Notes under the pieces: model-generated
The model's database searches: none
What the model saw: only the letters and a program-made list of their open reading frames with translations
Told to the model about the DNA's origin: nothing
NCBI GenBank assembly: GCA_964450845.1
Contig: CAYVGZ010000020.1
Location: 1 to 20,978 of the forward strand
Direction: 5' to 3'
DNA from: an uncultured Candidatus Bathyarchaeia archaeon
Lineage (GTDB): Archaea; Thermoproteota; Bathyarchaeia; Bathyarchaeales; Bathycorpusculaceae
Length of the DNA: 20,978 bases
Program-made: the position numbers and the translations under genes
Shown: one piece after another, positions 2,599-20,978 of the stretch
Layout: every line of letters starts with the position of its first letter
Numbering within the stretch: the first letter of the stretch is position 1

Positions 2599-3084
2599 AT
2601 TTCCTCGCTTTATACTCCACGGGAGCATTTAAAAGGTTTGCTAATTACCTATAACAATAGCAAATCACTAATGCCAAATCGTTGGGAATTCCAAACCGGA
2701 GCCTGCGATGGTTCTGACAAGAGTAGGCGTGTTAGAAACTCATTAGTCATAGAGCTATTTAAATAGTCATTCTACTATACCATTAGCAATCAACCCAAAC
2801 AAGAACGCAAAGAACTTAGAAGAGTGGAGAAATGAAGAAAAAGCAGAAGAAGAAAACCGAACTTCCAAAGAGGTACAGGAAGAACAAGAAGTAGTCGCAT
2901 GCGCAGCACTAGTGTTTGCAGCATACTCTGCAGCTCCTTCTTTTATCGCGGATCTTCCAAGGAAACAAACCGTTTTGTTATGTAATCGATTCTCCAAGGC
3001 TGCACAAGATCATAATTGGCTATAACTATAGACAGCATCTATAATAATCCAATTCGTCTATACCCATCGTCTTTTCACAAATAT

Positions 3085-3110
3085 TATAAGAGGGTTGTTG
3101 ATTTCTTATA
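3085..3110 (+). promoter_or_regulatory. 7-bp inverted repeat overlapping the TATA box of the ArsR gene (candidate operator)
   Basis: TATAAGA (3085-3091), 12-nt spacer, TCTTATA (3104-3110). TATA-like TATTATAA at 3082-3089. Confidence 0.4.
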
Positions 3111-3413
3111 TTGAACAGAGGTTCTTGCTTGACTCTAGAAGAGATCGTTGCAACAGGCGAAGCAGCCTTAAAGATTGCTGACGCCTTAACCTCGACAAGT
3201 CTCAGAATACTGCAATTGGTTTCTCAGAAGCGTTTAGATGTTTCAACAATCGCCAGAAAATTAGACTTGAGTGAGGCTTACATGAGCGAACAGGTCCGCA
3301 TGCTTGAAGAAGCCAAGCTAATCAAAGTAAGCTATGAACGAGGGAAAAGAGGAATCAGAAAGCTGTGTGAATTGGCAGTCTCCAGAATAATCATAGTGAT
3401 CAAGCCTAACTAG
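3111..3413 (+). CDS. ArsR-like winged helix-turn-helix transcriptional regulator
   Basis: ALKIADALTSTSLRILQLV...LDVSTIARKLDLSEAYMSEQVRMLEEAKLIKVSYERG is an HTH plus wing. The true start may be TTG near 3129 (MTLEEIV). Confidence 0.85.
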   Translation: MNRGSCLTLEEIVATGEAALKIADALTSTSLRILQLVSQKRLDVSTIARKLDLSEAYMSEQVRMLEEAKLIKVSYERGKRGIRKLCELAVSRIIIVIKPN

Positions 3414-3511
3414 AATGGTGACACCGTAGACCCTCCGAGTCGCAGAGAAATATGAAGCACGCTTCACTCCAAGATGCATCAGGCAATCGATCATGATGCT
3501 CTGATCAGGAG

Positions 3512-3574
3512 ATGGACACTATACCAGAAAAGAAAGGGAAGAAAAAGAAGGGTTCAGCCAAGAAGTCTAAGTGA
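3512..3574 (+). CDS. Possible 20-aa Lys-rich micro-ORF
   Basis: AGGAG immediately upstream of ATG 3512; MDTIPEKKGKKKKGSAKKSK*. Very short, and could be a remnant or chance. Confidence 0.25.
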   Translation: MDTIPEKKGKKKKGSAKKSK

Positions 3575-3665
3575 CTTCCAAACATAGAATCCTTCGCCTC
3601 TTTTGCTACGTTCGCATTCACTCCGTTCTTTTTTCTGCAATTCCTTTCACAATATGATGGCAGTC

Positions 3666-4243
3666 CTATTTCTTAGATCGTTTGCTTTGGAAGTCACGCT
3701 TCAGGCACGGGCAGTATCGGTCTTCGATTCGATCATAATATCCTACTTCCCAGTGTTCTGTGTTCAGAATGCCATATTCTGTGCAGCCGAGCATCGAAGA
3801 TATGGTGTGGGCTATCTCAACTCTGTCATTGGATTCAAAGTATCTCTTCGAGCCATCTGCAAAACCAGTTTGCTCAGTTTACTGAGAAGATCACAGAAAT
3901 CCATGAATTTCTTTGGTCCGTACTTCGCAATTCTTTCATCAGGAGACCATGCAACGTATTTCTCAAGAGGATCTTTAGTATCTGGATCGACTGCAAACCG
4001 GCCACTAGCCATCAGTGTTCCAAGCTTGTAGTTGATCTTGCTCTTAACGATCTGCTTGTCTTTCGAATCGACTAATACACGAAAGCTGAAGATAACATCG
4101 TCTTCCAGATGGTCTCTTATTATGAAATGCAGACTCCTAACACCTTCAAGATCCTTCACAAATCCATAAAAACTAACAAGTACTCGTCGGACATCAGCAG
4201 GCTTGCATCTGAAGACTACCACACACCAGTCATCATCCGCCAT
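3666..4243 (-). pseudogene. Frameshifted hypothetical protein (one base apparently missing near 3840-3880)
   Basis: The track ORF 3812..4243 ends ...QMARRDTLNPMTELR*. The -1 frame continues open as (KR)YFESNDRVEIAHTISSMLGCTEYGILNTEHWEVGYYDRIEDRYCPCLKRDFQSKRSKK* to TAG at 3666-3668. Confidence 0.7.
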
Positions 4244-4546
4244 AAGGGATCCCTTAACAACAATTGATACGTGTTCTTCGTATTTATTCCCTTAGCGCAC
4301 GAGCCACAGGCAACTGCGTACCTGAGAAATCGGAAAGCTTTTAGCATTAGTCGAGTGATGCGCGCTATAACATGACGGGCGAAACACGACGAGCTCTCGG
4401 GTGAATAGCAAAAATGCGAGTAAAACCTAACTGTTTTGATAGCAATATTGCTAGTTTTTACTCGCAAAATAATAGTAAGCGAAAAATGTTTGAAGCGAGA
4501 GTTTGAAGCTACCTGCATTGCAGAAACAAGTACTTTTACCGGTAAA
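4243..4546. repeat. Cluster of perfect palindromes and an 11-bp inverted repeat
   Basis: TAAGGGATCCCTTA 4243-4256; TGCGAGTAAAA 4415-4425 / TTTTACTCGCA 4456-4466; TAGCAATATTGCTA 4440-4453; CTGCA-T-TGCAG 4513-4523; TTTACCGGTAAA 4535-4546. Confidence 0.85.
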
Positions 4547-4634
4547 CGTGTGTTCAAATTTCAACCCCCACTTACAACGTCCTAAATTGAGTTTCTTTAG
4601 CTGAAATAAGCTCAAATTATGCCTAAATTTAGAG

Positions 4635-4708
4635 TGCGGTCGCCGGGATTTGAACCCGGGTCGTCAGCGTGGGAGGCTGATGTCCTAGCCAAACTAGACT
4701 ACGACCGC
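4635..4708 (-). tRNA. tRNA-Gly (anticodon CCC), intronless, CCA not encoded
   Basis: GCGGTCG-TA-GTCTAGTTTGGCTAGGAC-A-TCAGC-CTCCCAC-GCTGA-CGAC-CCGGG-TTCAAAT-CCCGG-CGACCGC-A folds into a full cloverleaf of 74 nt. Confidence 0.97.
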
Positions 4709-4781: not shown

Positions 4782-6107
4782 CTATTTGGATTTTGTTATG
4801 TGCACGTCTTTGATTAGAACGTAAGGCGATAACGATGGCGGATCTGCTTCGCCCCACCAATGTACATGTTGCCTTTCCTTCGAAATTCCAGCAATGTTGC
4901 CCAGTAAGCTCAAAGCATTGTCACTTACGCGTAAGTCCTTCAACGATTGCTTTATTTCTCCATTCTCGATTAAGAAAATGCCATCCCTAGGAATTGTTGA
5001 AAAGTCACCCTTCGCATAGTTTTGGAAACGCGTATACCAAGTGTTTGTCAGATAAAGCCCTCTCTTTACTTGTTTGAAGAGTTCCTCTCTATGCATGTCT
5101 CCAGAGTCCATTTCAATACTCCATGCATTCGGCGCAACCAACCCAGCATTAGCCGTGGTTTCAGTTTTGAATATTTTAGCTGTTGAGGTGTTATGAAGAT
5201 ATGTTTTAAGCACACCATGGTCAATGAAGACATTCTCCCTCGTTGAAACACCCTCATCGTCAAAAATGCGGTTAGCCATAGAATAGGCAGATGGAACATC
5301 TTTCAATGTCACGTTTTCAGGCGCTACTTTTTGGCCAAGTTTGTTGATGAAAACTGAAAGCTGAATTAGAATATTGAAAGCTGAAACCATTGAACCCCAA
5401 ACGCCAAGTAGTGAACCAAAAATCAAAGGATCATAGATAACATCATATACGCCCTCTTCACCAACTTTCGGATTCTTGGCTAACTTTGCAATTTCCCCAG
5501 CTTTACTCCCAGCTCTTGAAGGTTTAAAATCTTTCAGTGTTGAACTACATTCGACACCATGACCAGAAGCTTCTCTTTCCGAGAAAGCCCTTATTGAAAG
5601 CTCAATTGCTGATCGACTGTCAACACCAGCAGGTCCTTCAGAAGAAACCAAATAAACATCTTCGAATTTGGTAAAGAGTATGCCTCCGCTGTCAATTTGA
5701 GACCCAACTTCTTTTTCCGCAGCACCCATCGCTTCAAAGACATACTCACTGGGATCTTCTAAATCTTGAAGTTTCTTATCAGCATTACTTTTTGCATAGT
5801 GAAAACTGCCTTTTGCAAAACCTCCAAACATTGGGTTTTCCTTAGAAACCTTTGCCAACTCAAATAGTCTTTTAATGCTTGCATCAACTTTTTGAAAATT
5901 GTGTATCTGTGTAGCGACCACACGTTTTTTCCAAGCCAAATTAACATCTGTGACATAATCATTCCATGCAACAGTGATATCCATCTGGTTATTGCTGAAA
6001 CGCGCCTGCCTATATTTGCCAAAAGTAGTTCTAGCAATGACTTCGTCTGCGCCTAAGGCTTTCGCTTTCTTAACTATCTCTTCGGTTTTGTTGAGTATGT
6101 CATTCAT
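4782..6107 (-). CDS. pmbA: TldD/PmbA family protein, PmbA(TldE)-like non-catalytic subunit
   Basis: 441 aa with FDDEGV, TYLHN, TAN A G, G.FS and IENGEI motifs; lacks HExxGH. ATGA overlap with tldD. Confidence 0.88.
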   Translation of the reverse strand: MNDILNKTEEIVKKAKALGADEVIARTTFGKYRQARFSNNQMDITVAWNDYVTDVNLAWKKRVVATQIHNFQKVDASIKRLFELAKVSKENPMFGGFAKGSFHYAKSNADKKLQDLEDPSEYVFEAMGAAEKEVGSQIDSGGILFTKFEDVYLVSSEGPAGVDSRSAIELSIRAFSEREASGHGVECSSTLKDFKPSRAGSKAGEIAKLAKNPKVGEEGVYDVIYDPLIFGSLLGVWGSMVSAFNILIQLSVFINKLGQKVAPENVTLKDVPSAYSMANRIFDDEGVSTRENVFIDHGVLKTYLHNTSTAKIFKTETTANAGLVAPNAWSIEMDSGDMHREELFKQVKRGLYLTNTWYTRFQNYAKGDFSTIPRDGIFLIENGEIKQSLKDLRVSDNALSLLGNIAGISKERQHVHWWGEADPPSLSPYVLIKDVHITKSK

Positions 6108-7522
6108 TTTATGTACACTCCTCTAAGCCTAATACATGGACCACCAGTAGAAACAGGAACGCCTTGCATAGGATCACCTTTTCCGCAGGTTGCAGCATCA
6201 AATTTAATATTTTTAGAAACTGCGTCCACTGCTGTCCAAAACTTTTGAGTCGTGGTCTCGATTATTGGTCTCGCAACAGGATGTTTCAATTCTCCATTTT
6301 CTATCAGGTAAGCTTCTCTGCCAACGTAACGTTGGTTGAAACGTTTATCATCTATGTTCCATTCTGTGAACGATTTCATGTAAACCCCGTTCTTAACGCC
6401 TTCAATGAGCTCCTCTTCCGCCGTTTCGCCTGGTAAAACAAATGTGTTAGCCATGCGAACAATTGCTTCTCTGTCGTAGTTGACTGACCTTGAAGAAGCG
6501 TTACTCTTTGTTCCCAGTTTTGCAGCAGTTTCTCTATTGTGCAAGAACTCGTTTATTACACCATTTTTGTACATGTATCTGCGCCTTGCCTTAACACCCT
6601 CATCGTCATAAGCGTAATAGCCGTAACTGTGCTCTATTGTAGGATCATCAACTACCGTTACAACATCGCTTCCAATCTTTGTGCCAATCCAATAGGGACC
6701 GCCTTTGAATATGAAAGATCTTCCAGCTTGACTCATTTCTCGCCCTAAGATTCTATCAGCTTCCATTGGATGACCGCAAGATTCATGCGCTGCTATTCCT
6801 GTGACCTCAGAACCGCAAATGAGATCCATGGTTCCAGGTTTTATGGCTTTTCCCTTCGTTATGACATCCTTAAGAACCTTGGCGTTGTGAATCATTTTTT
6901 CGGTGGCGTTCCATTCTTGAAATGCTTCCCATCCGCCGCTATAACCAAATTGCTCGTAGGCTTGCTCGGTTTTTCCTTGCTCAGCAACTGTGATAAAGAC
7001 GAAAGCGGCTATTTTTGGGACAAATGAAGAAATGCGGGAACCTTCAGAGTTGACATAATATTTTGATGTTAAATCTGTTGAACACGAAGATGTTGTTGCA
7101 GCGATGTTTACTCCACATGAAGCCAAGGACTTGTCAATTTCCACAAATTTTGATATTTTTTCTTCGGGTGAAACGTTCTCTATTTTTTCTTTCTGATTGA
7201 CAGTCCACTTTGTTTCAATCCCTTTTTCTTCAGCAAACCTTATTTTGTCTTTTCTATTGGCTGCCTTAGCGTACTTGAACGCTAAATCCACTATTTCTTT
7301 TGCCTCTTCCTTTGTCCATTTGTTGGTTGAAGCAAAGCCTATTCCACCGTTGGCTATAACTCGCACACAGAACCCGCTGTCAACCGCAGACGCATAAGTC
7401 TCTAGAATACCACTTCTTAGTAAAAGCCTCTCTTGGATTTGGTTCTGCGCTCTCACTTCTGCATATTCAACGTTTTTGCTTTTCGCGTACTCCAAAGTAT
7501 AATCGACAATGTCTTCTTCCAT
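6104..7522 (-). CDS. tldD: TldD metalloprotease subunit
   Basis: HESCGHPMEADR zinc motif (HExxGH), YDDEGV, MANTF, C-terminal CGKG..Q.VPVSTGGP. RBS GGTGA. Confidence 0.92.
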   Translation of the reverse strand: MEEDIVDYTLEYAKSKNVEYAEVRAQNQIQERLLLRSGILETYASAVDSGFCVRVIANGGIGFASTNKWTKEEAKEIVDLAFKYAKAANRKDKIRFAEEKGIETKWTVNQKEKIENVSPEEKISKFVEIDKSLASCGVNIAATTSSCSTDLTSKYYVNSEGSRISSFVPKIAAFVFITVAEQGKTEQAYEQFGYSGGWEAFQEWNATEKMIHNAKVLKDVITKGKAIKPGTMDLICGSEVTGIAAHESCGHPMEADRILGREMSQAGRSFIFKGGPYWIGTKIGSDVVTVVDDPTIEHSYGYYAYDDEGVKARRRYMYKNGVINEFLHNRETAAKLGTKSNASSRSVNYDREAIVRMANTFVLPGETAEEELIEGVKNGVYMKSFTEWNIDDKRFNQRYVGREAYLIENGELKHPVARPIIETTTQKFWTAVDAVSKNIKFDAATCGKGDPMQGVPVSTGGPCIRLRGVYIK

Positions 7523-7629
7523 CTCTATTTCACCCTTTTAGAAGTTACAGTTGCATGAAACAAAAGATAAAACCTTTTAGGTTAAAGCTGAGATTTTCAA
7601 TGAAGCCCAAACAACAGAGGAGAAACCCG

Positions 7630-8778
7630 TTGAAAAAGTTTCCAGAGGTAAACACATACTTTTGGCAAGGAAGCGAAGCATGCGCTGAAGCAGCACTAGC
7701 CACAGGATGCCGATTCTTTGCTGGATATCCAATAACACCCGCAAGCGAAATAGCAGAATGCCTCTCGAAAAGGCTTCCACAAGTTGGAGGAATAGCCATT
7801 CAAATGGAAGACGAATTGGCTTCTATAGGGGCAGTTGTAGGCGCAAGTTGGACAGGCAATAAAGCAATGACCGCCACTTCTGGACCAGGTTTTGACCTAA
7901 TGCAAGAAACCATAGGCTGGGCATTTATGACAGAAACTCCATGCGTCATAGTTGACGTCCAAAGGACAGGCCCAAGCACAGGCCAAGCAACCAAATGCGG
8001 ACAAGGCGACGTCATGCAGTCACGATGGGGCACTCACGGTGATTATTCAGCAGTTGTCCTCTCGCCGAATTCCGTACAGGAAATGTTCGAATTAACAATC
8101 AGAGCATTTAACCTAGCCGAAAAATATCGCACGCCAGTTATACTTTTGGCAGACGAAGTCGTCGCACATATGAGAGAAAGAATAATCGTGCCTTCGTCAG
8201 AAAGTATAGAGATAATCAATAGAAGAAAACCAAAATCAGGTGAAAAAGCATTTTTTGGTTTGGAAGAAATCCCGCCGATGCCATCTGTTGGTGAAGGATT
8301 CAACATAGCTGTTACAGGATCAACGCATAACGAATATGGGATACGTTTCACAGCAGACCCTATAGTACATAGGCAACTTGTAGAGAGACTCAATAACAAA
8401 ATACAGAAGCATGCAGAAGAAATAGCTGAAGTGGAAACTTACAATATTGATGACTGCCAAATAGGCATTATTTCCTTCGGCTGTACTTCACGAGCAATCT
8501 ATGAAGCTGTTGAAATTGCAGAAGCAAAAGGAATAAAGGTGGGATACGTCCGCCTAAAAACCATCTGGCCTTTTCCAGAAAAAACTGTTAGGCAACTGGC
8601 GGAAACAGCAGAGAAGATTATTGTTCCTGAAATGAATCTGAAACAAATATTCTACGAAGTTCAGCGAGTTACAAACGGCTTGACAGAAGTGATTCCCCTC
8701 AACAAGATTGGTGGCGGAGAATTAATTACTCCGGAAGAATTGTTTGAAAAAATTCAGGGAAGTACCAGAAATGAGTGA
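7630..8778 (+). CDS. korA: 2-oxoacid:ferredoxin oxidoreductase alpha subunit
   Basis: FFAGYPITP, QMEDE, TATSGPGF, VDVQRTGPSTG motifs. Start refined to TTG 7630 (GAGGAG upstream); the track gives 7555. Substrate specificity is not determinable. Confidence 0.92.
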   Translation: MKKFPEVNTYFWQGSEACAEAALATGCRFFAGYPITPASEIAECLSKRLPQVGGIAIQMEDELASIGAVVGASWTGNKAMTATSGPGFDLMQETIGWAFMTETPCVIVDVQRTGPSTGQATKCGQGDVMQSRWGTHGDYSAVVLSPNSVQEMFELTIRAFNLAEKYRTPVILLADEVVAHMRERIIVPSSESIEIINRRKPKSGEKAFFGLEEIPPMPSVGEGFNIAVTGSTHNEYGIRFTADPIVHRQLVERLNNKIQKHAEEIAEVETYNIDDCQIGIISFGCTSRAIYEAVEIAEAKGIKVGYVRLKTIWPFPEKTVRQLAETAEKIIVPEMNLKQIFYEVQRVTNGLTEVIPLNKIGGGELITPEELFEKIQGSTRNE

Positions 8779-9604
8779 AACCTTTTCTATTCGACAATAT
8801 TTAAGACCCATACCCTTGCCTTTCTGTCCAGGTTGCGGTGGACTAACAGTTATGAGTGAATTTCTAAGGGCAGTTCACGAATTAGGCCACGAAAATCTGA
8901 ACAATTTTGTTTTCTGTAGTGGAATTGGCTGCTCCTCATGGATTCCATCACCACATTTTATGGCAGACTCTGTTCATACTCTGCATGGAAGAAGCATACC
9001 TGTGGCAACCGGAATTAAACTTCTGCGCCCAGGTTTGGATGTTGTTGTTTTCGGGGGAGACGGTGACATTGTTGGAATAGGTTTAAGCCACTTCATACAC
9101 GCAGCGAGGAGAAACTTGGACATTTTAGTTATAATGGTTAACAATATGGTTTACGGAATGACTGGTGGACAAGTTGCCCCAACAACACCATTTGAAGCAA
9201 AAACAACAACAACACCATACGGAAGCTTTGAACATCCATTAGACGCTGCGAAACTAGCTGTTGCAGCAGGAGCCTGTTATGTTTCACGTTGGACAACAGC
9301 TCACCCAAACGAACTCAAAAATTCCATAAAAAAGGCACTAAAAATACAGGGCTTCAGATTTGTAGAAGCTGTAAGCCAATGCCCAACAGCCTTCGGAAGA
9401 AGAGTGGGGCTAAAAGACGCTGGAGAAATGTTGAAATGGCTCAAAGAAAACGCCATTACAGTTAAGCAAGCAGAAAACTTGAACGAAGAAGATTTAACGG
9501 GAAAAATCGTTGTAGGCGAATTTGTCCAGAGACAGCGACCCACACTCGCAGAAGCCATATACAAAATAATTAGGGAGGCACAGAAAAAAGTTGAACAAAA
9601 CTGA
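8771..9604 (+). CDS. korB: 2-oxoacid:ferredoxin oxidoreductase beta subunit
   Basis: FCPGCG, SGIGCS, HTLHGR, TPP motif GDGD-X-NN (GDGDIVGIG...MVNNMVYGMTGGQ), SQCPT. Start refined to ATG 8771. Confidence 0.92.
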   Translation: MSETFSIRQYLRPIPLPFCPGCGGLTVMSEFLRAVHELGHENLNNFVFCSGIGCSSWIPSPHFMADSVHTLHGRSIPVATGIKLLRPGLDVVVFGGDGDIVGIGLSHFIHAARRNLDILVIMVNNMVYGMTGGQVAPTTPFEAKTTTTPYGSFEHPLDAAKLAVAAGACYVSRWTTAHPNELKNSIKKALKIQGFRFVEAVSQCPTAFGRRVGLKDAGEMLKWLKENAITVKQAENLNEEDLTGKIVVGEFVQRQRPTLAEAIYKIIREAQKKVEQN

Positions 9605-10133
9605 AGTGAGAATAAGTGGACTCGGCGGACAAGGCGTAGTTTTAGCAGGGCAAATATTAGGCAGAGCAGCAGTCTACGATGGAAAAAACGTTGTTCAAAC
9701 CCAAAGTTACGGAGCCGAAGCAAGAGGAAGTGCAGCTAAAAGCGAAGTAATAATATCAGAAGGCAAGATAGGTTTTCCAGCAGTCAGAAAATGCGACATA
9801 TTAATTGCGATGAACCAAAATGCTCTTGATAGACACTTTAAGGATTTGAAAGAAGACGGCGTACTGATAATTGATAGCACCGATCTAAACAAGATCCCGA
9901 GGACTAAAGCAAAAATATTCAAGTTTCCAGCAACAGAAATTGCCGAAAAAACGTTTGGAGCAAAAATCTATGCAAACATGTTTATGCTTGGTGCATTAAC
10001 GAAAATAACAAATATAGTGAGTGAAAAAGCCATAGAGAGAGCGATAGAAGATACAATTGGAAAAAAAGCCACAGATACAAATAGGCAAGCCTATAAAAAG
10101 GGGCAAGAGCTAATCCAAAAAGCCGTTCCATAG
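9591..10133 (+). CDS. korC: 2-oxoacid:ferredoxin oxidoreductase gamma subunit
   Basis: EVRISGLGGQGVVLAG, QTQSYGAEARGSAAKSEV, NMFMLGAL. TTG start overlaps the korB end. Confidence 0.92.
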   Translation: MNKTEVRISGLGGQGVVLAGQILGRAAVYDGKNVVQTQSYGAEARGSAAKSEVIISEGKIGFPAVRKCDILIAMNQNALDRHFKDLKEDGVLIIDSTDLNKIPRTKAKIFKFPATEIAEKTFGAKIYANMFMLGALTKITNIVSEKAIERAIEDTIGKKATDTNRQAYKKGQELIQKAVP

Positions 10134-10233: not shown

Positions 10234-11985
10234 TTATCTCTCTTCGATTGCCTTGATCTTTATTGTTGGACTTGCATGCACACGTTTTGACAAGTAAAAA
10301 GTCACAATTATGAAGATTGCTGTTGTGGCTATAAATATGTATACCAAGTTTCGAATATTTTCTATTTGCTCAGAATAATCTAACAGATGCTCCTGATAGG
10401 AATTGTTCAACTCGTCGAAGCTTAGTTTGAGCTGGTTATAATCAACTAAAAGGGTGGCATAGTTATTAATAAGAACGGCGTACGTTTGGTTCAAGCTATA
10501 AAGCGTCTGATAGGACACGTTCAATTCTTCAAGATTTTTCTGAAGCAGACTGTAATTACCTAAAAGAACGCTATAGTTGTCGCTAAGGCTATTATACATC
10601 TCATTCAAAATATCCAAATCAAACTGCAAAGCTGTGAAGTCAGCTAGAAGCCCTTGATACGCATCATTCAAGTTAGAGAACGATTGGTTTAGCGTGTTAT
10701 ACATACCAAGCAATTCATAGTATTGACGCAACGATGCAGAAGAGATTATTGTGACAACGCAATTATGTGAATAAGTGAAATATAAGCAAGCGAATGTCTC
10801 GTTTGAAGCATCAAACTCAGTTGGATCAGCCTCCTCATTATCGACTAATATGATATTCGGATGTTCCATTAACGCTGCAGGAATTTTGATTCTGCAGAAA
10901 CCAACTGCCCCATTTACAAGGGAGATATTAAAACTTATTATTTTGTTGCCCGTTTCTTTGCCAACTTGAAACTTAAAATCAGAAATTGTTGAATTGCTAA
11001 TAGTAGTAACACTATACTTTTCGTTTTCCCAAACGATTTTGAAATCAGAGAATGGTCCCATTAGAGGATAGTTATCTTGAACGTACGAGTTCATAGTGTA
11101 AGGAGTGTCTCCAATTCCATCTCCACCAAGGTCTTGCCCTTCGTAATCGTTCCAGTAGTTGCCTTCACCTTCATAATCCCAAACATTCATAGCATCACTT
11201 TCGACATTCTTTGTATTGTTAACGTTGTTGTGATAGAAAGTGTTATTGGCACTATCGAAGGAACAATACATTCCAACGTTTAAGTTGGCTGACACGTTAT
11301 TACCAGAAATTACGTTCTTGCTAGAAGAGTACAGATGAAATCCGTTATAGTTAGAGTATATGATGTTGTCTGAAACCATATTGCCATCAGAAGAATAGAG
11401 ATAGACTCCGTATTGGTTAGAGGAAAAAATGTTACTTGCAATCACGTTGTTGCTAGAAGAATAAAGAACGACTCCACTGTAGGAGTAGGTGGATATGACG
11501 TTACTTGAAATCGTAATGTTGCTTGAATAATATAGGCTGATTCCATCGTTGGTGGGGCTTAAGATCTTATTGTCGCTTATATCGCTGCCTACAGAATGGT
11601 CTACGAATATACCGCTGTCGTATGGGTTCACACCACTATTTCTTATAGTGAAGCCATTAATGTTTACATAGCTAACATTTATGTAAATAACAGTGCCAGT
11701 TCCTTCGGATCCTTTGCCATCAATGATGGTTAAGTTCACATCTTCTCCAATGAGTGACACAGTCTTGTTAACAACAACATTCTCAGTGTATATTCCTTTT
11801 TCCACAAAAATAGTACATCCTGAGCTTGCGTTATTTATGGCGTCTTGGATTGTTGGATAATCCGTTGGAACATAGATTATGCAAGTACTTGCTTTTACAG
11901 GGATTTTACATTTCGTTAAAAACATAAGAGACAACAAACAAACGATAGTTAATAAAACCAAAACTGTTTTCTTCAATTTAATCAC
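10234..11985 (-). CDS. Membrane-anchored surface protein: signal peptide, NosD/PbH1-type right-handed beta-helix, beta-rich domain, coiled-coil stalk, C-terminal TM
   Basis: Basic-hydrophobic N-terminus; VPTDYPTIQDAINNA; repeated G..LY.SSNN.I..N units; YWNDY.G.D..GDGIGDTPY; Leu/Tyr heptads; LVYIFIATTAIFIIVTFYL followed by a basic tail. Confidence 0.85.
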   Translation of the reverse strand: MIKLKKTVLVLLTIVCLLSLMFLTKCKIPVKASTCIIYVPTDYPTIQDAINNASSGCTIFVEKGIYTENVVVNKTVSLIGEDVNLTIIDGKGSEGTGTVIYINVSYVNINGFTIRNSGVNPYDSGIFVDHSVGSDISDNKILSPTNDGISLYYSSNITISSNVISTYSYSGVVLYSSSNNVIASNIFSSNQYGVYLYSSDGNMVSDNIIYSNYNGFHLYSSSKNVISGNNVSANLNVGMYCSFDSANNTFYHNNVNNTKNVESDAMNVWDYEGEGNYWNDYEGQDLGGDGIGDTPYTMNSYVQDNYPLMGPFSDFKIVWENEKYSVTTISNSTISDFKFQVGKETGNKIISFNISLVNGAVGFCRIKIPAALMEHPNIILVDNEEADPTEFDASNETFACLYFTYSHNCVVTIISSASLRQYYELLGMYNTLNQSFSNLNDAYQGLLADFTALQFDLDILNEMYNSLSDNYSVLLGNYSLLQKNLEELNVSYQTLYSLNQTYAVLINNYATLLVDYNQLKLSFDELNNSYQEHLLDYSEQIENIRNLVYIFIATTAIFIIVTFYLSKRVHASPTIKIKAIEER

Positions 11986-12785: not shown

Positions 12786-13232
12786 ATGGCAAATTACATC
12801 AAAGGAATCGGTTTAAGTCGTCCGTTTCTGAGTGAGAAATGCAAGACTACTAAATTTCCCAATTTGCACAAGAAATATAGAAGTCACTTCGAGATCTTAG
12901 CTTTGGTGCTTGAGGCTATAAATCACAACGGGGCATCTCCATCGTCTATTGTGAGATACACGGGAATGAACTACAAGCAGCTTAAGAAATACCTAGGATC
13001 TCTTACCGACATCGGTTTTGTTGATGCGAATGCTATCGACGGCCAGATTTCATATAGGGTTAATGAAAAAGGACTAGCCTTTCTGAGACAGTATTATGTT
13101 TTACTGATGATGCTGTTAGGTGTATGCACAGAAAACAACCAATTAACATTGTTTATGAACATGAACAAGAACCTTGCAAACAAAAGCGTTCGTCAATATG
13201 CTTTGCAACATGATTTGCAACGCATGCCATGA
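12786..13232 (+). CDS. Winged helix-turn-helix transcriptional regulator (archaeal, HTH_45-like)
   Basis: YRSHFEILALVLEAI...IVRYTGMNYKQLKKYLGSLTDIGFV...YRVNEKGLAFLRQY. Strong RBS AGGAGGAGG upstream. Confidence 0.8.
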   Translation: MANYIKGIGLSRPFLSEKCKTTKFPNLHKKYRSHFEILALVLEAINHNGASPSSIVRYTGMNYKQLKKYLGSLTDIGFVDANAIDGQISYRVNEKGLAFLRQYYVLLMMLLGVCTENNQLTLFMNMNKNLANKSVRQYALQHDLQRMP

Positions 13233-13583: not shown

Positions 13584-13616
13584 GGAATAATTAACCACTA
13601 AATGTGGGGGAAATCG

Positions 13617-14696
13617 TTGACTCGAAAAGTTACCTATGCAAATGCTGGTGTTGATCGAGAGTTAAGGGCTGCATCTAAAAAGGCTCTTCATATTTTGAAG
13701 GAAACTTACAAGTTTAGTTACTGTGGTGAAGTTATTCAGCTTCCTTATGGGAATATTTTTGCTTTTGAGAAAAATCGTTATTTGGATTTGGTGATTGAAG
13801 GTGTAGGTACAAAGGTTCTTGTTGCGCAGTTAGCTGAAAAATATGACACGATAGGGATTGATGGGGTGGCGCTGGCTGTTAATGATGTTATAAGGTCTGG
13901 CGCCAAGCCTTTAGCGATTGCAGATAATATTCATGCACAAATTTCAGACCCCGTCTTGGTTGGGGAATGGATGAAGGGCATAGTGAAAGGGGCAGTTGAA
14001 TCTGAATGTGTTGTGCCAAGCGGGGAAATAGGCGACGTAGCAGAAGTGATAAAGGGTTTAGTAGAGGGCAAAGGCTTTGACATGATCGTTGCGACAATAG
14101 GTGAAGTTACTGGGGACAAAATAATTTTTGGAAGAGACATAGAAGCTGGCGATGTTGTAATAGGCTTGCGGAGCTCTGGAATCCACAGCAACGGCGTATC
14201 CCTAGCAAGAAAAATCCTCTTCAAAAAATGGGGTGGAAAATACGAGCCTTATGATATTCCTGATGGGTTGAACAGGGAAATAGTATATGAAGTTTTGGAG
14301 CCGATGAGGATATATGTTAAGCCGCTGCTTGCCGTTGCGGACGAGCTTAAAGTTAAGGCTGCAGTGCACATTACTGGTGATGCATATTTGAAGTTTGACA
14401 ATTTAACACGGTTTTCTAAAGGTATAGGTTTTGAATTTGACAATTTCAATCCACAGCCTATCTTTGAATTGGTTCAGAAAACTGCTTCTGAACTCGGCGG
14501 CGAGATAATTGACGAGGAAATGTTTAAGACGTTTAATATGGGATGGGGCTTCGCAGTGATAGTGGACAAGGCAGTGAGAGACAAAGCAATAGATGTTTTC
14601 GGAAAAACTGGGGTGCAAGCTGAACAAATAGGCGTTGTAACGGATTCTGAAGGAATTAAGATTCATTATAAAAACAGGAAAATCATTTTGAAATAG
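13617..14696 (+). CDS. purM: Phosphoribosylformylglycinamidine cyclo-ligase (AIR synthetase)
   Basis: TYANAGVD, GVGTK, VNDV, GIHSNGVSLARK, VHITG, MFKTFNMGWG; next to purS/L/Q. Start refined to TTG 13617. Confidence 0.9.
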   Translation: MTRKVTYANAGVDRELRAASKKALHILKETYKFSYCGEVIQLPYGNIFAFEKNRYLDLVIEGVGTKVLVAQLAEKYDTIGIDGVALAVNDVIRSGAKPLAIADNIHAQISDPVLVGEWMKGIVKGAVESECVVPSGEIGDVAEVIKGLVEGKGFDMIVATIGEVTGDKIIFGRDIEAGDVVIGLRSSGIHSNGVSLARKILFKKWGGKYEPYDIPDGLNREIVYEVLEPMRIYVKPLLAVADELKVKAAVHITGDAYLKFDNLTRFSKGIGFEFDNFNPQPIFELVQKTASELGGEIIDEEMFKTFNMGWGFAVIVDKAVRDKAIDVFGKTGVQAEQIGVVTDSEGIKIHYKNRKIILK

Positions 14697-14753: not shown

Positions 14754-15005
14754 ATGAAATATCGCCTAAAAATTGAAGTTAGTTTGAAGCCGGGTCACAG
14801 CGACCCTGAAGGTGAAACAACAGCACGCTTGTTGAAAGAACTTGGCTATAGAGTTGAAACTGTAAATGTTGGTAAGGTCTACAGTGTGGTTCTTGATGCT
14901 GAATCTAGGAAAGAGGCTGAAACTAGAGCCGAAGAGATGTGTAAGAGGCTTCTTGCAAATCCAACGAAGGACAATTATGCAATCTTGATTGAGGAGGAAA
15001 AATGA
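14754..15005 (+). CDS. purS: Phosphoribosylformylglycinamidine synthase subunit PurS
   Basis: V.LKPG..DPEGET, VGKVY, MCKRLLANP motifs; 83 aa; ATGA overlap with purL. Confidence 0.95.
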   Translation: MKYRLKIEVSLKPGHSDPEGETTARLLKELGYRVETVNVGKVYSVVLDAESRKEAETRAEEMCKRLLANPTKDNYAILIEEEK

Positions 15006-17383
15006 CCGCAAGCTTCTACATTCGCAGAAAAACGCCATTTGCAATCTTTGAAATAAACTTGCATGAAGCTACAGATCGGCAGCTTCTGGACATAAGCAAC
15101 GAACTGGGTGTAGGTTTAAACCTGCAGGAAATGAAGGCTGTTCAAGAGTATTTTAGGAATAGGAAGCGAAACCCAACGGATGTTGAGCTTCAAACCATTG
15201 GGCAAACGTGGTCTGAACATTGCTTTCACAAAACTTTCAAAAGCAAAATAAGAATGAATGGGGAGGAAATTGATGGACTCTTCGAAACCTATATTGTAAA
15301 GGCTTCTGAGGAAATTAATCCTCAGTGGTGTTTCTCTGTTTTTGAAGACAACGCCGGGATAGTCCGCTTTAACAAAGACTACGGGATAGCGGTTAAAGTT
15401 GAAACGCATAACCATCCATCGGCTGTGGAGCCTTTTGGCGGTGCGGCTACTGGCGTGGGTGGAGTAATCCGCGACATTCTAGGCGTGTGGGCAGACCCCA
15501 TTGCTTGTACTGACGTTTTGGGCTTCGGTCCATTAGATTTTGACTATGAAAAACTTTCACTAGGCATAAAGCATCCGAAATACGTTTACATGGGCGTCGT
15601 AGCCGGAATAGGAAGCTATGGCAATAACATGGGAATCCCAACGGTTAATGGAGCGATATACTTTGATGAAAGTTACGTGGGAAACGTTGTTGTTTACTGT
15701 GGCTGCATTGGTTTGCTTCCGCTTAAAAAGTTCAGGAAAAGCGTCAAACCAAACGACATAGTTGTTCTGGCTGGAGGAAAAACGGGTCGTGACGGCATCC
15801 ATGGCGTGACCTTTGCGTCTGCGGAATTAACGGAAAAATCGGAAGAGGTTTCTAGACCAGCAGTTCAGATTGCAAACCCAATCGAGGAAGAGAAACTGAA
15901 AAGAGCCATAATTGAGATTCGAGAACTTGAACTTGCATCGGCAATAACAGATTTGGGCGGTGGCGGCTTATCATCTGCTGTCGGCGAAACAGCAAAAAGG
16001 TTTGGTTGCGGCACCGTTGTGGAGCTTGAAAAAGTCCCGCTGAAATATCCGGGTTTGGCTCCGTGGGAGATTTATGTTTCCGAATCGCAGGAAAGAATGC
16101 TTTTGGCTGTGCCCCCTGAAAATTTTGAAAGGGTTCTGGAGATTTTTAGAAGTGAAGATGTTGAGGCTACTGCTATTGGAAGATACACTTCAGATAATGT
16201 GTTAACGATTTATCATCAAGGTGAAAAAGTTGCGGAGATGGACATTCCATTCCTTTTTAAACCGCCAAAAGCCACGAAAACAGCAGAGTACAGACCTGCA
16301 AATTTTGAAGAGCCTTCTTTTTCAGAGCCACAAAACCTAACTGAGACGCTTTTGCAGATTTTATCTTCACCTAACGTTGCAAGCAAAGAAAGCGTGATAC
16401 GCACTTATGACCATGAGGTGAAGGGAAATACTGCGCTTAAGCCACTTCATGGCGAGTATAGTGGACCCAACGATGCGGCTATAATAAAGCCTTTGAAAGA
16501 TTCTTGGAAAGGCATAGTAGTTTCGTGCGGAATGAACCCGAATTATGGTAAAATAGACGCTTATTGGATGACTGCGTCCGCAATAGACGAAGCAATAAGA
16601 AACAATGTTGCCGTTGGCGGCAGAAGAATAGCCTTGCTTGACAATTTCACGTGGGGCAACCCTGAAAAGCCAGAAAGGTTGGGTAGTCTTGTAAGGGCTT
16701 GTGAAGCATGCTACGATTCTGCAGTTGCTTTTAAAACGCCATTTATCTCAGGAAAGGACAGCCTCTATAATGAGTCCCCACTTGGACCAGTAACGCCAAC
16801 CCTTTTGATCACGGCTTTAGGCATAGTTCCTGATGTTCGTTCAGCAGTTTCGATGGATGTTAAAGCTCCAAGCAACTCTGTTTATGTTGTTGGGCAGACT
16901 TTCAAAGAGCTTGGCGGCTCGGAATATTATAAGCTGAAGGGCTTCATAGGGAAAAGCGCGCCGAAGGCGCGTCCTAACAACGCCATAAAAACGTTTAGGG
17001 CTGTTACTAGGGCTATTGATTTGGGGCTGGTTAAGGCTTGCCATGATTTGTCTGACGGTGGCTTGGCTGTTGCTGCTGCGGAGATGGCTTTTGCAGGCGG
17101 ATATGGCATGGAGTTGCATTTACAGAAAGTTCCAACAAGATATGCAAACCGCAATGATTTCGTCTTGTTCTCAGAATCAAACAGCCGCTTTTTAGTAGAA
17201 GTTTCACAGGAAGCGAAGGAAGAATTTGATGCGTTAATGAAAGGAAAGATCTATGCAGAAATAGGCAGGGTTACGAAGACTCCGCAGTTATGCATCTATG
17301 GATTAAAAGGTGAAGTTACTGTAGACATTGCGATTAGCGATTTGTTGGCGAGTTGGAAGCGAACATTCAGTGGCGAGGTCTAA
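15002..17383 (+). CDS. purL: Phosphoribosylformylglycinamidine synthase subunit PurL
   Basis: QTWSEHCFHK, KVETHNHPSAVEPFGGAATGVGG, DLGGGG, SESQERM, ISGKDSLYN, HDLSDGG. Confidence 0.97.
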   Translation: MTASFYIRRKTPFAIFEINLHEATDRQLLDISNELGVGLNLQEMKAVQEYFRNRKRNPTDVELQTIGQTWSEHCFHKTFKSKIRMNGEEIDGLFETYIVKASEEINPQWCFSVFEDNAGIVRFNKDYGIAVKVETHNHPSAVEPFGGAATGVGGVIRDILGVWADPIACTDVLGFGPLDFDYEKLSLGIKHPKYVYMGVVAGIGSYGNNMGIPTVNGAIYFDESYVGNVVVYCGCIGLLPLKKFRKSVKPNDIVVLAGGKTGRDGIHGVTFASAELTEKSEEVSRPAVQIANPIEEEKLKRAIIEIRELELASAITDLGGGGLSSAVGETAKRFGCGTVVELEKVPLKYPGLAPWEIYVSESQERMLLAVPPENFERVLEIFRSEDVEATAIGRYTSDNVLTIYHQGEKVAEMDIPFLFKPPKATKTAEYRPANFEEPSFSEPQNLTETLLQILSSPNVASKESVIRTYDHEVKGNTALKPLHGEYSGPNDAAIIKPLKDSWKGIVVSCGMNPNYGKIDAYWMTASAIDEAIRNNVAVGGRRIALLDNFTWGNPEKPERLGSLVRACEACYDSAVAFKTPFISGKDSLYNESPLGPVTPTLLITALGIVPDVRSAVSMDVKAPSNSVYVVGQTFKELGGSEYYKLKGFIGKSAPKARPNNAIKTFRAVTRAIDLGLVKACHDLSDGGLAVAAAEMAFAGGYGMELHLQKVPTRYANRNDFVLFSESNSRFLVEVSQEAKEEFDALMKGKIYAEIGRVTKTPQLCIYGLKGEVTVDIAISDLLASWKRTFSGEV

Positions 17384-17386
17384 GCC

Positions 17387-18205
17387 ATGAAACGAGAAGA
17401 GATTAAAGTTTGCGTCTTGCGTGTAGGCGGAACAAACTGCGATGCAGAGACCAAACGTGCCTTTGAGGAGCTAGGCACTCAAGCTGAAATTTTGCACATA
17501 AACCAACTAGTCAAACGCCGAAACCTTCTAGATTACCATGTTCTAGTTTTTCCAGGCGGATTCGCTTATGGCGATTATGTGCGTGCGGGGGCTATATGGG
17601 CTAAATGGATGTTAGCCAAAGTGGGCAGAGAACTGAAAGCCTTTGTTGATGAAAATCGGCCAGTCCTTGGCATTTGCAATGGTTTTCAGGTGCTTGTTGA
17701 AGCTGGTTTGCTTCCAAGTTTTAAGGGAATGAGCCCGTATCCAGAGGCTGCGTTAGCAACTAATTTTCCGCCTGGCTACAATTGTCGTTGGATTTATCTT
17801 AGACATGAAAACGATGGAAAATGCATGTTCACGTGGAAAATTCCGAAGGGAAAAGTCCTGCGAATACCAGTTGCGCATTCGGAGGGCAGATTTATGTTTG
17901 CAAAAGAAAAGGAAAAACAGTTTTTAGAAAGGCTTTACGAGAATAACCAGCTCGTCTTCCGCTACTGCAACAAAGACGGTGAATACGCAGAAGGACGCTT
18001 TCCGATGAACCCGAATGGTTCTTTCCACGACATAGCAGGAATATGTAACCCAGAAGGAACAATATTTGGTTTGATGCCGCATCCTGAAAGAGCCTTCTAC
18101 TGGTGGCAACAGCCAGACTGGACAAGACAAACGCACATGCCAGAATATGGAGATGGAAAGCTAATCTTCGAAAGTCTAATCGAGCATCTACAAAAGAGGT
18201 TTTAA
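17387..18205 (+). CDS. purQ: Phosphoribosylformylglycinamidine synthase glutaminase subunit PurQ
   Basis: GTNCD.ET, PGGFAYGDY, GICNGFQ (catalytic Cys), HSEG, NPNGS, MPHPER. Confidence 0.97.
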   Translation: MKREEIKVCVLRVGGTNCDAETKRAFEELGTQAEILHINQLVKRRNLLDYHVLVFPGGFAYGDYVRAGAIWAKWMLAKVGRELKAFVDENRPVLGICNGFQVLVEAGLLPSFKGMSPYPEAALATNFPPGYNCRWIYLRHENDGKCMFTWKIPKGKVLRIPVAHSEGRFMFAKEKEKQFLERLYENNQLVFRYCNKDGEYAEGRFPMNPNGSFHDIAGICNPEGTIFGLMPHPERAFYWWQQPDWTRQTHMPEYGDGKLIFESLIEHLQKRF

Positions 18206-19099
18206 ATCTTTGAGATACGGAAGCCCTGGTCTGGCGCCCATTTTCATTATGCATCTTGAAGCGACAAAATTGCCAAGTCTTCCACATTCATAGAGGCTTT
18301 TGCCAGAAATCAAACCATAAAGAAAACCAGCACAAAAAGCGTCACCAGCGCCTGTCGTGTCAACAACTTTCACTTTAAAGGCATCTATAAGGTGATTTTC
18401 TCTTCCATCCGTTACATAGCACCCTTTGCTGCCCAATTTTACAGCAACTATTTCCACGCCTTTTTTTAGCAGAACATCAGCACCTTTTCTGTAATCAGCC
18501 GTCTTGGTTAACAGCTCAAGTTCGCTAAGATTCGGCATCAAAACAAACGTTTTTTCTATAATTTGTTCCAACATCGCGCCCTTTCTTGCATACAATTCTC
18601 CCGGGTCAAGGCTCAACTTGACGTTTTGAGGAAGCACATTAACGAGTTTTTTCTGAGTTTGAAACGATTTTTCTCCAATAAAGGATGTTAGATGCAGAAA
18701 GCGTGTCTGAAACGCATATTCCATGCTTATTTCATTAAATTCTATCGTGTCATTCACGCCAGGATTAACATATAATGCCCGATCGCCTTTTTCGTCCACA
18801 AAACCCATAACCGTACCGCTTCTGCCACGTTTTGAATTTATTATGCCGTTTGTGTCTACGCCTTCTCTACGAAAATCTTCAACTAACATTTTGCCTTCTC
18901 TATCATCAGCAACCTTTCCAATAAAGCCCACCTTGCAACCAAGCTTTGCCAAGCCTACGATTGTGTTGGCTGCTGAACCTCCGCAAGCCTCTTCACAATT
19001 TTTTATGTAGTTTTCTCCTTCTGCCTTGGCTATTTTATTTACTTTGAAAAGCCTGTCAACGTTTAAGCCGCCGAATCCGACAGCATCAAAAACGGTCAT
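18188..19099 (-). CDS. PfkB/ribokinase-family carbohydrate or nucleoside kinase (EhaT-like context)
   Basis: GGSAANT...LAKLG and [13 protein letters not shown] signatures. Start refined to ATG 19099 (ATGA overlap with the ftr-like stop). The 3' end overlaps purQ by 18 bp. Confidence 0.92.
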
Positions 19100-20010
19100 G
19101 GAAACAACTCGCACAAGTAAATTTTATAATCGCCCAGTTTTCCACCGTAATTTCCAGCAGAAATCTTCACCACATCATCAACTTTCAGCGTTGCCTCTAT
19201 GCCAGCTTTCATGGCTTCTTTAACAGCTTGCAACGAAACGCCATTAATCACTATTTCTGGAATGTAGTTAACGCCTTCAGGCACCATCGAGTCTTTGCCC
19301 AGTTTCTTTTTCAGCGAAGGACAGTAGGGATGGTTTGTTGTTGGTCCTATTAGCGGAAACTTTGTTTCAGTTTTTGAACCAGCAGAACAAACGTCAAATG
19401 GCGTTATTACACCTTCAACTTGGCTTATGGCTTCTAATGCTTTTTTCCCAGCGTCCATTACCGCCTTTTTTGTTTTACACATGTACCAAAAGTTGCCGCC
19501 AGATATTCCACGAGCATAACCAATATACCGCTCTATGAGAAAGTCGGGCACCATTATTGGAACAACAATCATATCACGCCCATAAAGCTGTTTTTCCCAC
19601 TCGAACCCGTCTCCACAATGTCCAACTCTTTCCATCATGTCAATTTTTCCTTCAATTTTCGCAGATAAAGCATCAAAGATAGCCGTAAAAGGTTTAACCA
19701 GAATGTCTTGACGAATCCGATAAGAAAACTCTTTTTCAAAACGCTTAACCAAGTCTTCTAAAGGCTTTCCTTTGTCTAAACCTTTCCAGAATTGTAAAAT
19801 TGCTCCTTTTCGCTTGTCGGGTGTTTCTCTTTCACTTAGCCATCTTTCGATTCCACTGTCAAGTCTACCTATGACTCCTGATGGCGTTGCGGTGGCGTCT
19901 TCTGCTGCCTTCTTTAATGTTTCTTCGTCATCTGCAGTGACGATGACTCGGCAGTAGAGACCGTCAAAAGCTTCTGCATACGTATCTTCAACTTCAGCTT
20001 TTTTAACCAT
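19096..20010 (-). CDS. ftr: Formylmethanofuran:tetrahydromethanopterin formyltransferase-like protein (divergent Ftr paralogue, EhaS-like)
   Basis: [53 protein letters not shown] are recognisably Ftr, but the N-terminal substrate-side motifs are divergent. Confidence 0.85.
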
Positions 20011-20978
20011 TTATCCCAGTCTCCCTATGACTGCTCCTCTGACTTTTTTTCTGAATTCGGTACTTTCTTTTGCCAGAATCTCCATATTTTTATTCGTTAT
20101 TATTTTAGTTTTAGGCAATTCTCTGGGATACAAACTGAAAAGATTGCTGAGCAAAGTTTGGTTTATTGTGCTTTTCTTTAAAGCTTCGCTGTTCCAATTT
20201 TCGACAAGACTTAGGGCTTGCTTCTTTCCAAATCTGCTAAAAACATCTGCAACCACAGCGGTTACTATGCTATTTTCCGATAACACAGCAATTTCAGCGG
20301 CTTTTATTGCGTATTGATTACCGTTAAAAGAGACTGTTAAGCCACCGTTATCTCTTACAAGCCTAAAGGCTTCAACATCTGTTATGCTGTCGCCAACATA
20401 CATAACGTCAGCCAAAGCCACGTTTACCTTTTGAACGACGTCTTTTATAGATTCAGCCTTTTCGCTACCGCCCACTGGATTAACTTCAGAAAAAATTCTT
20501 CCACAATCAGTACATGCTATTTCCTTCCAGAAAATCTTGTCCAATCGCCGAATTGTTTCTTGATCTTTTTCTGGAAAATCTGTTATGGATTTTGCATTTG
20601 GTGGGATTTCAATTATTGGCATTTGTGATATTTCTTTGGCGGTTTCCTTCAGCTTGGTTTTTTCTCCTTCCGACATGTGGTATTTGTCGATGCTTACTCT
20701 CGTGCAATAGGTGTTTTCGTAAGGGAAACCTAGGGCTTTGCATAATGCCTTCATGTAGTGTTCGTAACTTGTACTCACAATAAAGGCATAAGCCACACTC
20801 TTAACGTGCCGCAATGTATCGTTTATGTTTGAGATCAGAACTAGGTTTTGAGCTGAAAATTCCCGCATTTTAGTGTCTGTAACATCATAAGCTTTGAGGA
20901 AGGACAAGATTAGCTTTAAGGTTGAGCCAGCCTTGTGATTCGGTCTTTTTAAAACATCTGCCAACACATCATCATATT
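20011..20978 (-). CDS. EhaR-like HAD-superfamily protein (5' truncated by window edge)
   Basis: The frame is open to the edge (..YDDVLAD..). K.GSTLKLILSFL, IVSTSYEHY (HAD motif II-like), GGSEK (motif III), YVGDSITD (motif IV), SFNGNQYA. TAA abuts the ftr ATG. Confidence 0.8.
   Translation of the reverse strand, partial: YDDVLADVLKRPNHKAGSTLKLILSFLKAYDVTDTKMREFSAQNLVLISNINDTLRHVKSVAYAFIVSTSYEHYMKALCKALGFPYENTYCTRVSIDKYHMSEGEKTKLKETAKEISQMPIIEIPPNAKSITDFPEKDQETIRRLDKIFWKEIACTDCGRIFSEVNPVGGSEKAESIKDVVQKVNVALADVMYVGDSITDVEAFRLVRDNGGLTVSFNGNQYAIKAAEIAVLSENSIVTAVVADVFSRFGKKQALSLVENWNSEALKKSTINQTLLSNLFSLYPRELPKTKIITNKNMEILAKESTEFRKKVRGAVIGRLG

Follow-up and report, generated by a model that had tools for sequence, protein, structure and literature searches.

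The window analysed here, a stretch of 20,978 bp that makes up the entire contig C20 of an uncultured Bathyarchaeia assembly (G000), carries at one end three tightly coupled minus-strand genes for a HAD-type phosphatase-like protein, a divergent homologue of formylmethanofuran:tetrahydromethanopterin (H4MPT) formyltransferase that we call Ftr2, and a PfkB-family kinase. We propose that this HAD-Ftr2-PfkB module probably performs the formylation of glycinamide ribonucleotide (GAR) to formylglycinamide ribonucleotide (FGAR), step 3 of purine synthesis, in organisms where PurN and PurT are absent, and that Ftr2 is the transferase. Few pathways are better known than de novo purine synthesis. Since 2011, several groups of archaea have been reported to lack GAR formyltransferase (PMC3261824), and the trio is the best candidate for this archaeal step. 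An earlier note on the same DNA had suggested that a phosphatase, a formyltransferase and a kinase act together on a ribosyl substrate such as GAR. As far as sequence comparison can speak to it, that suggestion gains support from the purine-gene context, the absence of PurN and PurT and the equivalence of genomic slots described below.

The coupling of the three genes that the earlier note described can be read directly from the DNA. The TAA stop of the HAD gene abuts the ATG of Ftr2, the TGA stop of Ftr2 overlaps a kinase ATG in the sequence ATGA, and the 3' ends of the kinase gene and purQ run 18 bp into each other, tail to tail (stop codons TAG at 18188-18190 and TAA at 18203-18205, respectively). 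The kinase likely starts at the ATG at 19099, which forms the ATGA with the Ftr2 stop. Beyond the window edge, where the earlier note had advised looking, contig C113 opens with the same 55 nt that close C20, a stretch matched by no other contig. Across this join the HAD frame runs on into its N-terminus, whose ~40 initial codons, motif I (S-D-C-E-G-P) among them, are on C113. Next upstream on this strand comes purD, whose stop overlaps the HAD start in the sequence GTGA, and after it a gene for a purF-type amidotransferase. A search with a 5-sequence Ftr2 alignment yielded 80 related loci, all Bathyarchaeia-like; the order purD-HAD-Ftr2-PfkB recurs in 64 of them, with convergent purQ just downstream in 55. 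Since related genomes keep this order, the join of C20 and C113 is validated, and the unit is ordered purF-purD-HAD-Ftr2-PfkB, facing purM-S-L-Q. The earlier note had allowed that the convergent adjacency might be a coincidence. Chance is excluded by purD and purF upstream on the same strand, the GTGA overlap and the conservation of the arrangement across the 80 loci.

The host assembly (1.64 Mb in 120 contigs) is rated 93% complete, so each single gene absence in it is provisional. Homologues at 94% identity bear the name Candidatus Bathyarchaeota. Families were assigned with Pfam and NCBIfam profiles. No purN or purT lies in the window, as had been noted before, and none was found in the whole assembly either: the PF00551 (Formyl_trans_N) profile gave zero matches, so no PurN fold is present, and the best ATP-grasp match scored 41 bits against a PurT cut-off of 502. 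With PurN and PurT missing, GAR formylation is a pathway gap exactly where the trio is encoded. PurP is present, and the second formylation step is therefore covered. The earlier note would have counted ordinary purN or purT together with purH or purP against its idea; the absence of the first pair favours the idea and the presence of purP does not. PurH1, PurO and MGS-type PurH2 were all not found in the assembly, which leaves the inosine monophosphate (IMP) cyclohydrolase step also without an assigned gene. A canonical Ftr1 (P0124), with S-P-A-E-A-G-I-E and R-I-G-Q-C motifs, is encoded on contig C19. FwdA and Mch are encoded on C21, and both donor candidates, formyl-methanofuran (formyl-MFR) and formyl-H4MPT, are therefore available in the metabolism of this archaeon.

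Published surveys report the same gap in other archaea. Two Archaeoglobi, four Methanobacteria and M. kandleri have no purN or purT and otherwise intact pathways (PMC3261824). PurN and PurT were also reported lacking in ANME-1, Archaeoglobales and Methanobacteriales, and an uncharacterised Ftr2 clade was described in ANME-1, ANME-2a/b, Archaeoglobales, M. kandleri and Methanothermobacter (PMC9012536). These two observations appear in separate sections of that paper, which draws no connection between them, and our literature search found no paper that joins GAR formylation to the Ftr family or assigns a function to EhaR, EhaS or EhaT. The best solved relative of the HAD protein, the uncharacterised AF1437 (1Y8A, E 1e-25), comes from A. 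fulgidus, which we count in favour of our proposal beside the lack of PurN and PurT in Archaeoglobi.

Both lobes of the Ftr family are matched over the full length of Ftr2 (PF01913, FTR, 151.7 bits; PF02741, FTR_C, 198.2 bits), and the solved Ftr structures 1M5S and 1M5H are recovered at E 3e-55. Ftr2 scores 352 bits against the subfamily model NF002554, over its cut-off of 297, and 241.7 against the equivalog TIGR03119, under its cut-off of 292.6. It has neither the Formyl_trans_N fold of PurN nor the ATP-grasp fold of PurT. The motifs quoted in the earlier note, including RIRQDILV, are all present in the translation. In a tree of representatives drawn from a 1.8-billion-protein library, the Ftr2 group, recognisable by its G-R-x-E-x-G-I-E and S-x-R-I-R-Q motifs, is split from Ftr1/FhcD by a branch with support 99, so that a grouping with canonical Ftr, which would have spoken against the earlier suggestion, is not what the tree gives. 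Judged from sequence and tree, Ftr2 is a divergent paralogue of formyl-MFR:H4MPT formyltransferase that forms a clade of its own. A third Ftr-like clade (P0145 with P0195, P0219, P0228, P0246 and P0259) stands apart from both Ftr1 and Ftr2 in the same tree.

The catalytic Glu of the family is Glu245 in M. kandleri Ftr and Glu252 in FhcD (PMC6926001), and the catalytic E252 is invariant in 35 of 35 Ftr2 sequences. Residues R49, R100, C132 and G222-P223 are invariants specific to Ftr2 that lie near conserved motifs; the corresponding Ftr1 residues are P/D, G, F and x-A. Even a distant Ftr2 (44% identical) adjoins a PfkB gene and a HAD homologue (30% identical). When we searched for Ftr2 fused to HAD, PfkB or PurD, the long Ftr proteins recovered were Ftr1/FhcD-type fusions with FwdA- or FwdC-like parts, and a search for longer Ftr2 proteins returned a single match, which was unrelated. 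A complex prediction for HAD, PfkB and Ftr2 scored 0.00, which counts neither for nor against an assembly.

The distribution of the module was examined across 251 Bathyarchaeia genomes, where Ftr2 profile scores are bimodal (at least 340 bits for Ftr2, ~250-277 for Ftr1). Ftr2 occurs in 93 genomes and HAD in 101, namely all 93 with Ftr2 plus eight more; purD is found in 207. Thirteen genomes carry PurT-like genes (225-303 bits), whose closest match is formate-dependent GAR formyltransferase, and the module is absent from all thirteen. PF00551 proteins are present in 101 genomes, only one of them Ftr2-positive (a 79-bit match on a different contig), and all 35 genomes with a strong PurN (at least 110 bits) are module-free. 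The only families that lack module, PurN and PurT alike are f11, f15, f17 and f20, and purD is likewise absent in all four. Switches also occur within families: f12 contains two genomes with the module and eight with a PurT-like gene, and f22 contains three with Ftr2 and two with a PF00551 protein.

The alternative enzymes occupy the same place in the genome. One relative (G006) has purF-purF'-purD-[PurT-like] facing purM-S-L-Q, the architecture of the window, and another (G016) has purQ-L-F-F'-D-PurT-like. In three more (G052, G037, G063) PurN directly follows purD, with a score of 205.9 bits against a cut-off of 150.1 in G052. PurN and PurT thus fill the post-purD slot of the module in relatives and are mutually exclusive with it in Bathyarchaeia, which suggests that they and the module serve the same pathway step.

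A third kind of replacement leaves the partners in place. The operon of G028 reads purF-purD-[330-aa Formyl_trans_N protein]-HAD-PfkB-FolD, and the 330-aa protein shows no similarity to Ftr2. A 474-kb metagenome contig (L136) has the same purF-purD-[PurN-like]-HAD-PfkB-FolD arrangement, followed by convergent PurH1 and PurH2, and family f9 also pairs HAD with a PF00551 protein. The PurN-like proteins of the G028/L136 type reach 51-75 bits with the PurN model, whose cut-off is 150, and belong to a large, mostly bacterial family of ~280 aa. They keep the N-H-D catalytic residues, but the G-R-G-S-N of canonical PurN (here that of G052), a loop that binds the GAR phosphate, is G-R-D-x-A-A in them. 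On bacterial contigs a PurN-like formyltransferase gene overlaps a PfkB gene. In L134/L135 (7001-7798) and on the contig of P0354, one of these labelled Poribacteria, the ~265-aa PurN-like gene overlaps the PfkB gene upstream of it, with no HAD and at a distance from any pur genes. Annotation pipelines call the ~280-aa proteins PurN although they score far under the PurN cut-off.

A second phylum was sampled as 111 genomes around one genome labelled Thorarchaeota. Ftr2 is present in 20 of them, 19 of which have purD, and HAD in 17, all Ftr2-positive, with none among the 91 genomes that lack Ftr2. PurN occurs in 44 genomes, PurT-like genes in three and purD in 62. The purD-positive genomes divide into 14 with Ftr2 only, five with Ftr2 and PurN, 35 with PurN only, three with a PurT-like gene and five with none of these, so that Ftr2 is found in 14 of the 19 that lack both PurN and PurT. 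The PfkB profile separated module kinases from paralogues by no clean score gap in this sample, and kinase membership in the module was for that reason judged by adjacency. The gene contexts include a co-directional purF-purD-HAD-Ftr2-PfkB-purL-purQ-purM, a purQ-purL-purF-purD-HAD-PfkB-x-purM with Ftr2 elsewhere in the genome, and a purD-x-HAD with Ftr2 and PurN elsewhere. The possibility raised by the earlier note that the trio is never near pur genes elsewhere does not hold, as it is pur-linked in many genomes of two phyla.

The partner proteins keep their catalytic residues. All four HAD superfamily motifs are retained: 26 homologues, with identities as low as 31%, share D8-x-E10-G-P, T108, K212 and G-D235-x-x-x-D239 without exception. 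Motif I has Glu in place of the usual second Asp, and D-x-E-G-P is specific to this HAD family. The kinase has the features of PfkB membership (a GG dipeptide, an NxxE motif and a TGAGD anion hole with the catalytic Asp), its invariants are N13, D15, G40-G41, N45, E193 and D247-x-T-G-A-G-D253, and it keeps the ribose-binding and catalytic residues of ribokinase. Among solved structures it comes closest to adenosine kinase and ribokinases (~85-104 bits). Because it scores 175 against the ribokinase equivalog TIGR02152, under the cut-off of 299.65, its substrate class is left unassigned by profile.

From these observations we infer the following reaction. Ftr2, with the Ftr fold and catalytic Glu kept, would take its formyl group from the MFR/H4MPT one-carbon (C1) pool, with formyl-MFR or N5-formyl-H4MPT as donor, and the acceptor would be GAR, or a closely related compound, at its glycyl amine. 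The HAD protein and the kinase would act on the ribosyl acceptor side and not on the C1 carrier, because both stay where a folate-type formyltransferase stands in for Ftr2.

Several observations weigh against this proposal. A formyl transfer has no evident need for a phosphatase-like protein and a kinase. Three second-phylum genomes (L122/G275, L123/G264, L127/G286) have purQ-purL-purF-purD-Ftr2 and no HAD-like gene genome-wide, along with a high-scoring module-type PfkB elsewhere, which suggests that Ftr2 can work without HAD. The five second-phylum genomes with both enzymes hold an Ftr2 of a lower-scoring sub-clade and a good PurN, and ANME-2a/2b were likewise reported with both Ftr2 and PurN (PMC9012536), so the complementarity of the two is not strict. 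Among Bathyarchaeia, f19, the largest Ftr2-free family, has only weak PF00551 proteins located away from pur genes, and the gene after its purD is ScpB, not a pur gene; its own GAR formyltransferase is for this reason insecurely identified. Some Ftr2 genes have unrelated neighbours (L082, L088), and the Methanothermobacter trio closes the eha hydrogenase operon and no pur operon (PMC3087415). The genomes in both phyletic counts are also kin, hence non-independent samples. Taken together, the trio is robustly tied to purine synthesis, but the module varies in composition and in some genomes is redundant with PurN.

One more specific scheme would give the partners a role, and we hold it tentatively, as a possible but rather improbable form of step 3: an ATP-driven shunt of three enzymes through the riboside. 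The HAD protein would strip the phosphate from GAR to give glycinamide riboside, Ftr2 (or, in folate users, the divergent PurN-like enzyme) would formylate the riboside from formyl-MFR or N5-formyl-H4MPT, and the ribokinase-like PfkB would re-phosphorylate the 5'-OH to give FGAR. The cost would be one ATP, equal to that of PurT, and would render a nearly isoenergetic transamidation irreversible. Consistent with the shunt, HAD and PfkB have all their catalytic motifs and the kinase family phosphorylates ribose 5'-OH groups. Both partners also persist when the formyltransferase is swapped, canonical PurN needs no such partners, and the PurN-like enzymes encoded with them have the altered G-R-D-x-A-A loop. 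The three genomes with Ftr2 after purD and no HAD speak against it.

Among the readings in which the module does not carry out step 3, an ordinary isoenzyme survives best, although we consider it unlikely. Ftr2 would then be a formyl-MFR:H4MPT formyltransferase whose only job is to adjust the C1 pool to biosynthetic needs, and some other protein would formylate GAR. The shared fold and catalytic Glu, the NF002554 score over cut-off, the Ftr2 genes located away from pur genes and the five genomes in which Ftr2 and PurN coexist would all fit. This reading has to face the canonical Ftr1 already present in the genome and the separate clade of Ftr2 with its own invariant residues. It also leaves unexpected that the protein replacing Ftr2 in situ is a PurN-like enzyme and not another Ftr, and that PurT or PurN occupies the Ftr2 slot in relatives.

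Slightly less likely still is that the trio salvages or repairs dephosphorylated purine intermediates (the ribosides of GAR, FGAR or AICAR, that is, aminoimidazole carboxamide ribonucleotide) rather than serving as the principal enzyme of step 3. The kinase resembles ribokinase and adenosine kinase and keeps its ribose-binding residues, the bacterial PfkB-formyltransferase pairs lie outside pur operons, and Salmonella has a PfkB kinase for aminoimidazole riboside, all of which we count toward salvage. A salvage role would not predict the exclusion of PurT and strong PurN or the close tracking of purD, and it would leave module-bearing genomes without any step-3 enzyme.

A role of the module in formylating AICAR (step 9), which the earlier note had offered in the alternative, or some further ribosyl amine in place of GAR is improbable. 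PurH1 is absent from the host assembly, and in the Bathyarchaeota BA2 locus L030 a PurH2-type gene (L030:9256-9912) lies between HAD and Ftr2; PurP, the formate-dependent AICAR formyltransferase, is present, however, L136 has the module alongside PurH1 and PurH2, and the enzymes that fill the slot in relatives, PurT and PurN, are specific to GAR. An extra gene between HAD and Ftr2 at a further locus (L039) gave no informative family match. Synthesis or recycling of methanofuran or H4MPT with the pur linkage reduced to co-regulation, akin to the cofactor salvage also raised earlier, is very improbable: the Ftr family binds both cofactors and one distant Ftr2 gene lies ~5 kb from an MfnB-type gene, but the same HAD and PfkB partner a folate-type formyltransferase and FolD elsewhere, and HAD stays tied to purD even when Ftr2 is elsewhere in the genome.

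The features of the window and of the adjoining contig are collected in Table 1; window positions 2000-4600 gave no family match and no Rfam match. Other purine and C1 genes of the host show some peculiarities. The purF-type open reading frame (ORF) on C113 (~3100-3138, minus strand) has its first ATG/GTG/TTG start at M-R-A-Q, after an in-frame G-C-G-V-F-G, the segment expected to hold the catalytic N-terminal Cys; because no canonical start codon precedes this segment, the gene start may be non-canonical or mis-called. The PurP-type ORF (C52:5748-6512) has 491 aa, and its match to the DUF1297 profile is split in two by ~130 nt of additional sequence between profile positions 130 and 135. MfnB (4HFCP synthase, PF04476) had no match in the assembly despite the presence of FwdA, Ftr1 and Mch; methanofuran may be made in a different way, or the MfnB gene may lie in the missing 7%. 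Among Bathyarchaeia, PurD of module-bearing genomes scores ~118-135 bits against GARS_A (profile positions 19-193) versus 140-252 in PurN/PurT-type relatives, to whose PurD it is only ~30% identical; the lower score may reflect lineage drift or co-adaptation with the module. The PurN/PurT-type loci L092, L093, L100 and L101 have tandem purF and purF', and module-type clusters have one purF. Two purF homologues (purF, purF') have been described for Crenarchaeota (PMC3261824).

Table 1. Genes and other features of the window, with purD of the overlapping contig C113 (positions are those of the window unless C113 is given).
Feature	Position	Strand	Evidence
HAD protein, EhaR/AF1437 type	20976..20011, open at contig end	-	HAD-type profile matches
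Ftr2, 304 aa	20010..19096	-	FTR + FTR_C lobes
PfkB-family ribokinase/adenosine-kinase-like kinase, 308/303 aa	19114 or 19099..18188	-	PfkB, 187.8 bits
purQ, formylglycinamidine ribonucleotide (FGAM) synthase glutaminase subunit	17387..18205	+	GATase_5, 228.9 bits
purL, FGAM synthase large subunit, consumes FGAR	15002..17383	+	profile match
purS	14754..15005	+	profile match
purM, aminoimidazole ribonucleotide (AIR) synthase	13602..14696	+	profile match
purD	C113:170-1582		
Winged-helix protein	12786-13232		
NosD-like beta-helix protein	10234-11985		
2-oxoacid:ferredoxin oxidoreductase alpha, beta, gamma subunits	7555-10133		
TldD/PmbA pair	4782-7522		
tRNA-Gly(CCC)	4634-4708		
Na/Ca exchanger	768-1838		

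If the proposal is true, GAR formylation has a third, non-homologous enzyme solution, and purine synthesis is linked directly to the MFR/H4MPT C1 pool. EhaS and EhaT of methanogen eha operons, long unexplained, would gain a function, and Eha would, by extension, top up the C1 intermediates that biosynthesis withdraws. In metagenome genomes of archaea and bacteria, "Ftr" and "PurN" annotations would have to be corrected in their thousands.

The trio resembles several known systems. The earlier note had pointed to a like trio at the end of the Methanothermobacter eha operon, EhaR-EhaS-EhaT, in which Ftr-like and ribokinase-like genes of unassigned function also stand together. The part of that comparison concerning EhaS (Ftr-like) and EhaT (ribokinase-like), which are co-transcribed with ehaA-R, is borne out by the literature (PMC3087415). 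The likeness of the window HAD to EhaR comes via an Atlas look-alike cluster named EhaR (score 0.98, TM 0.93) and not via the Methanothermobacter proteins themselves; it is a lead and no test, and further look-alike clusters are bacterial. Unlike EhaR-S-T, the window trio has no eha hydrogenase genes nearby, its neighbours being purD/purF upstream and purQ-L-S-M downstream.

Canonical Ftr1 (EC 2.3.1.101; PDB 1FTR/2FHJ, 1M5H, 1M5S) and bacterial FhcD (6S6Y) have the same two-lobe FTR + FTR_C architecture as Ftr2 and share with it the catalytic Glu in E-I-V-I-N-G and the SAGSK and GNYGGKLG motifs. Ftr2 differs from Ftr1 in having ~9 more residues ahead of the R-I-R-Q motif and in its gene context, after purD with HAD and PfkB partners and not with fwd/mch genes. 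PurN, which uses 10-formyl-tetrahydrofolate, and PurT, which uses formate and ATP, have no sequence or fold kinship to Ftr2 and act as single proteins, whereas the module consists of three proteins that travel together and, unlike either enzyme, would draw its C1 unit from the archaeal MFR/H4MPT carrier. A parallel in organisation is offered by the ~280-aa PurN-like enzymes paired with PfkB, with or without HAD, in bacteria and some archaea, which follow the same module logic as HAD-Ftr2-PfkB and differ in that their formyltransferase has the Formyl_trans_N fold and is probably folate-dependent.

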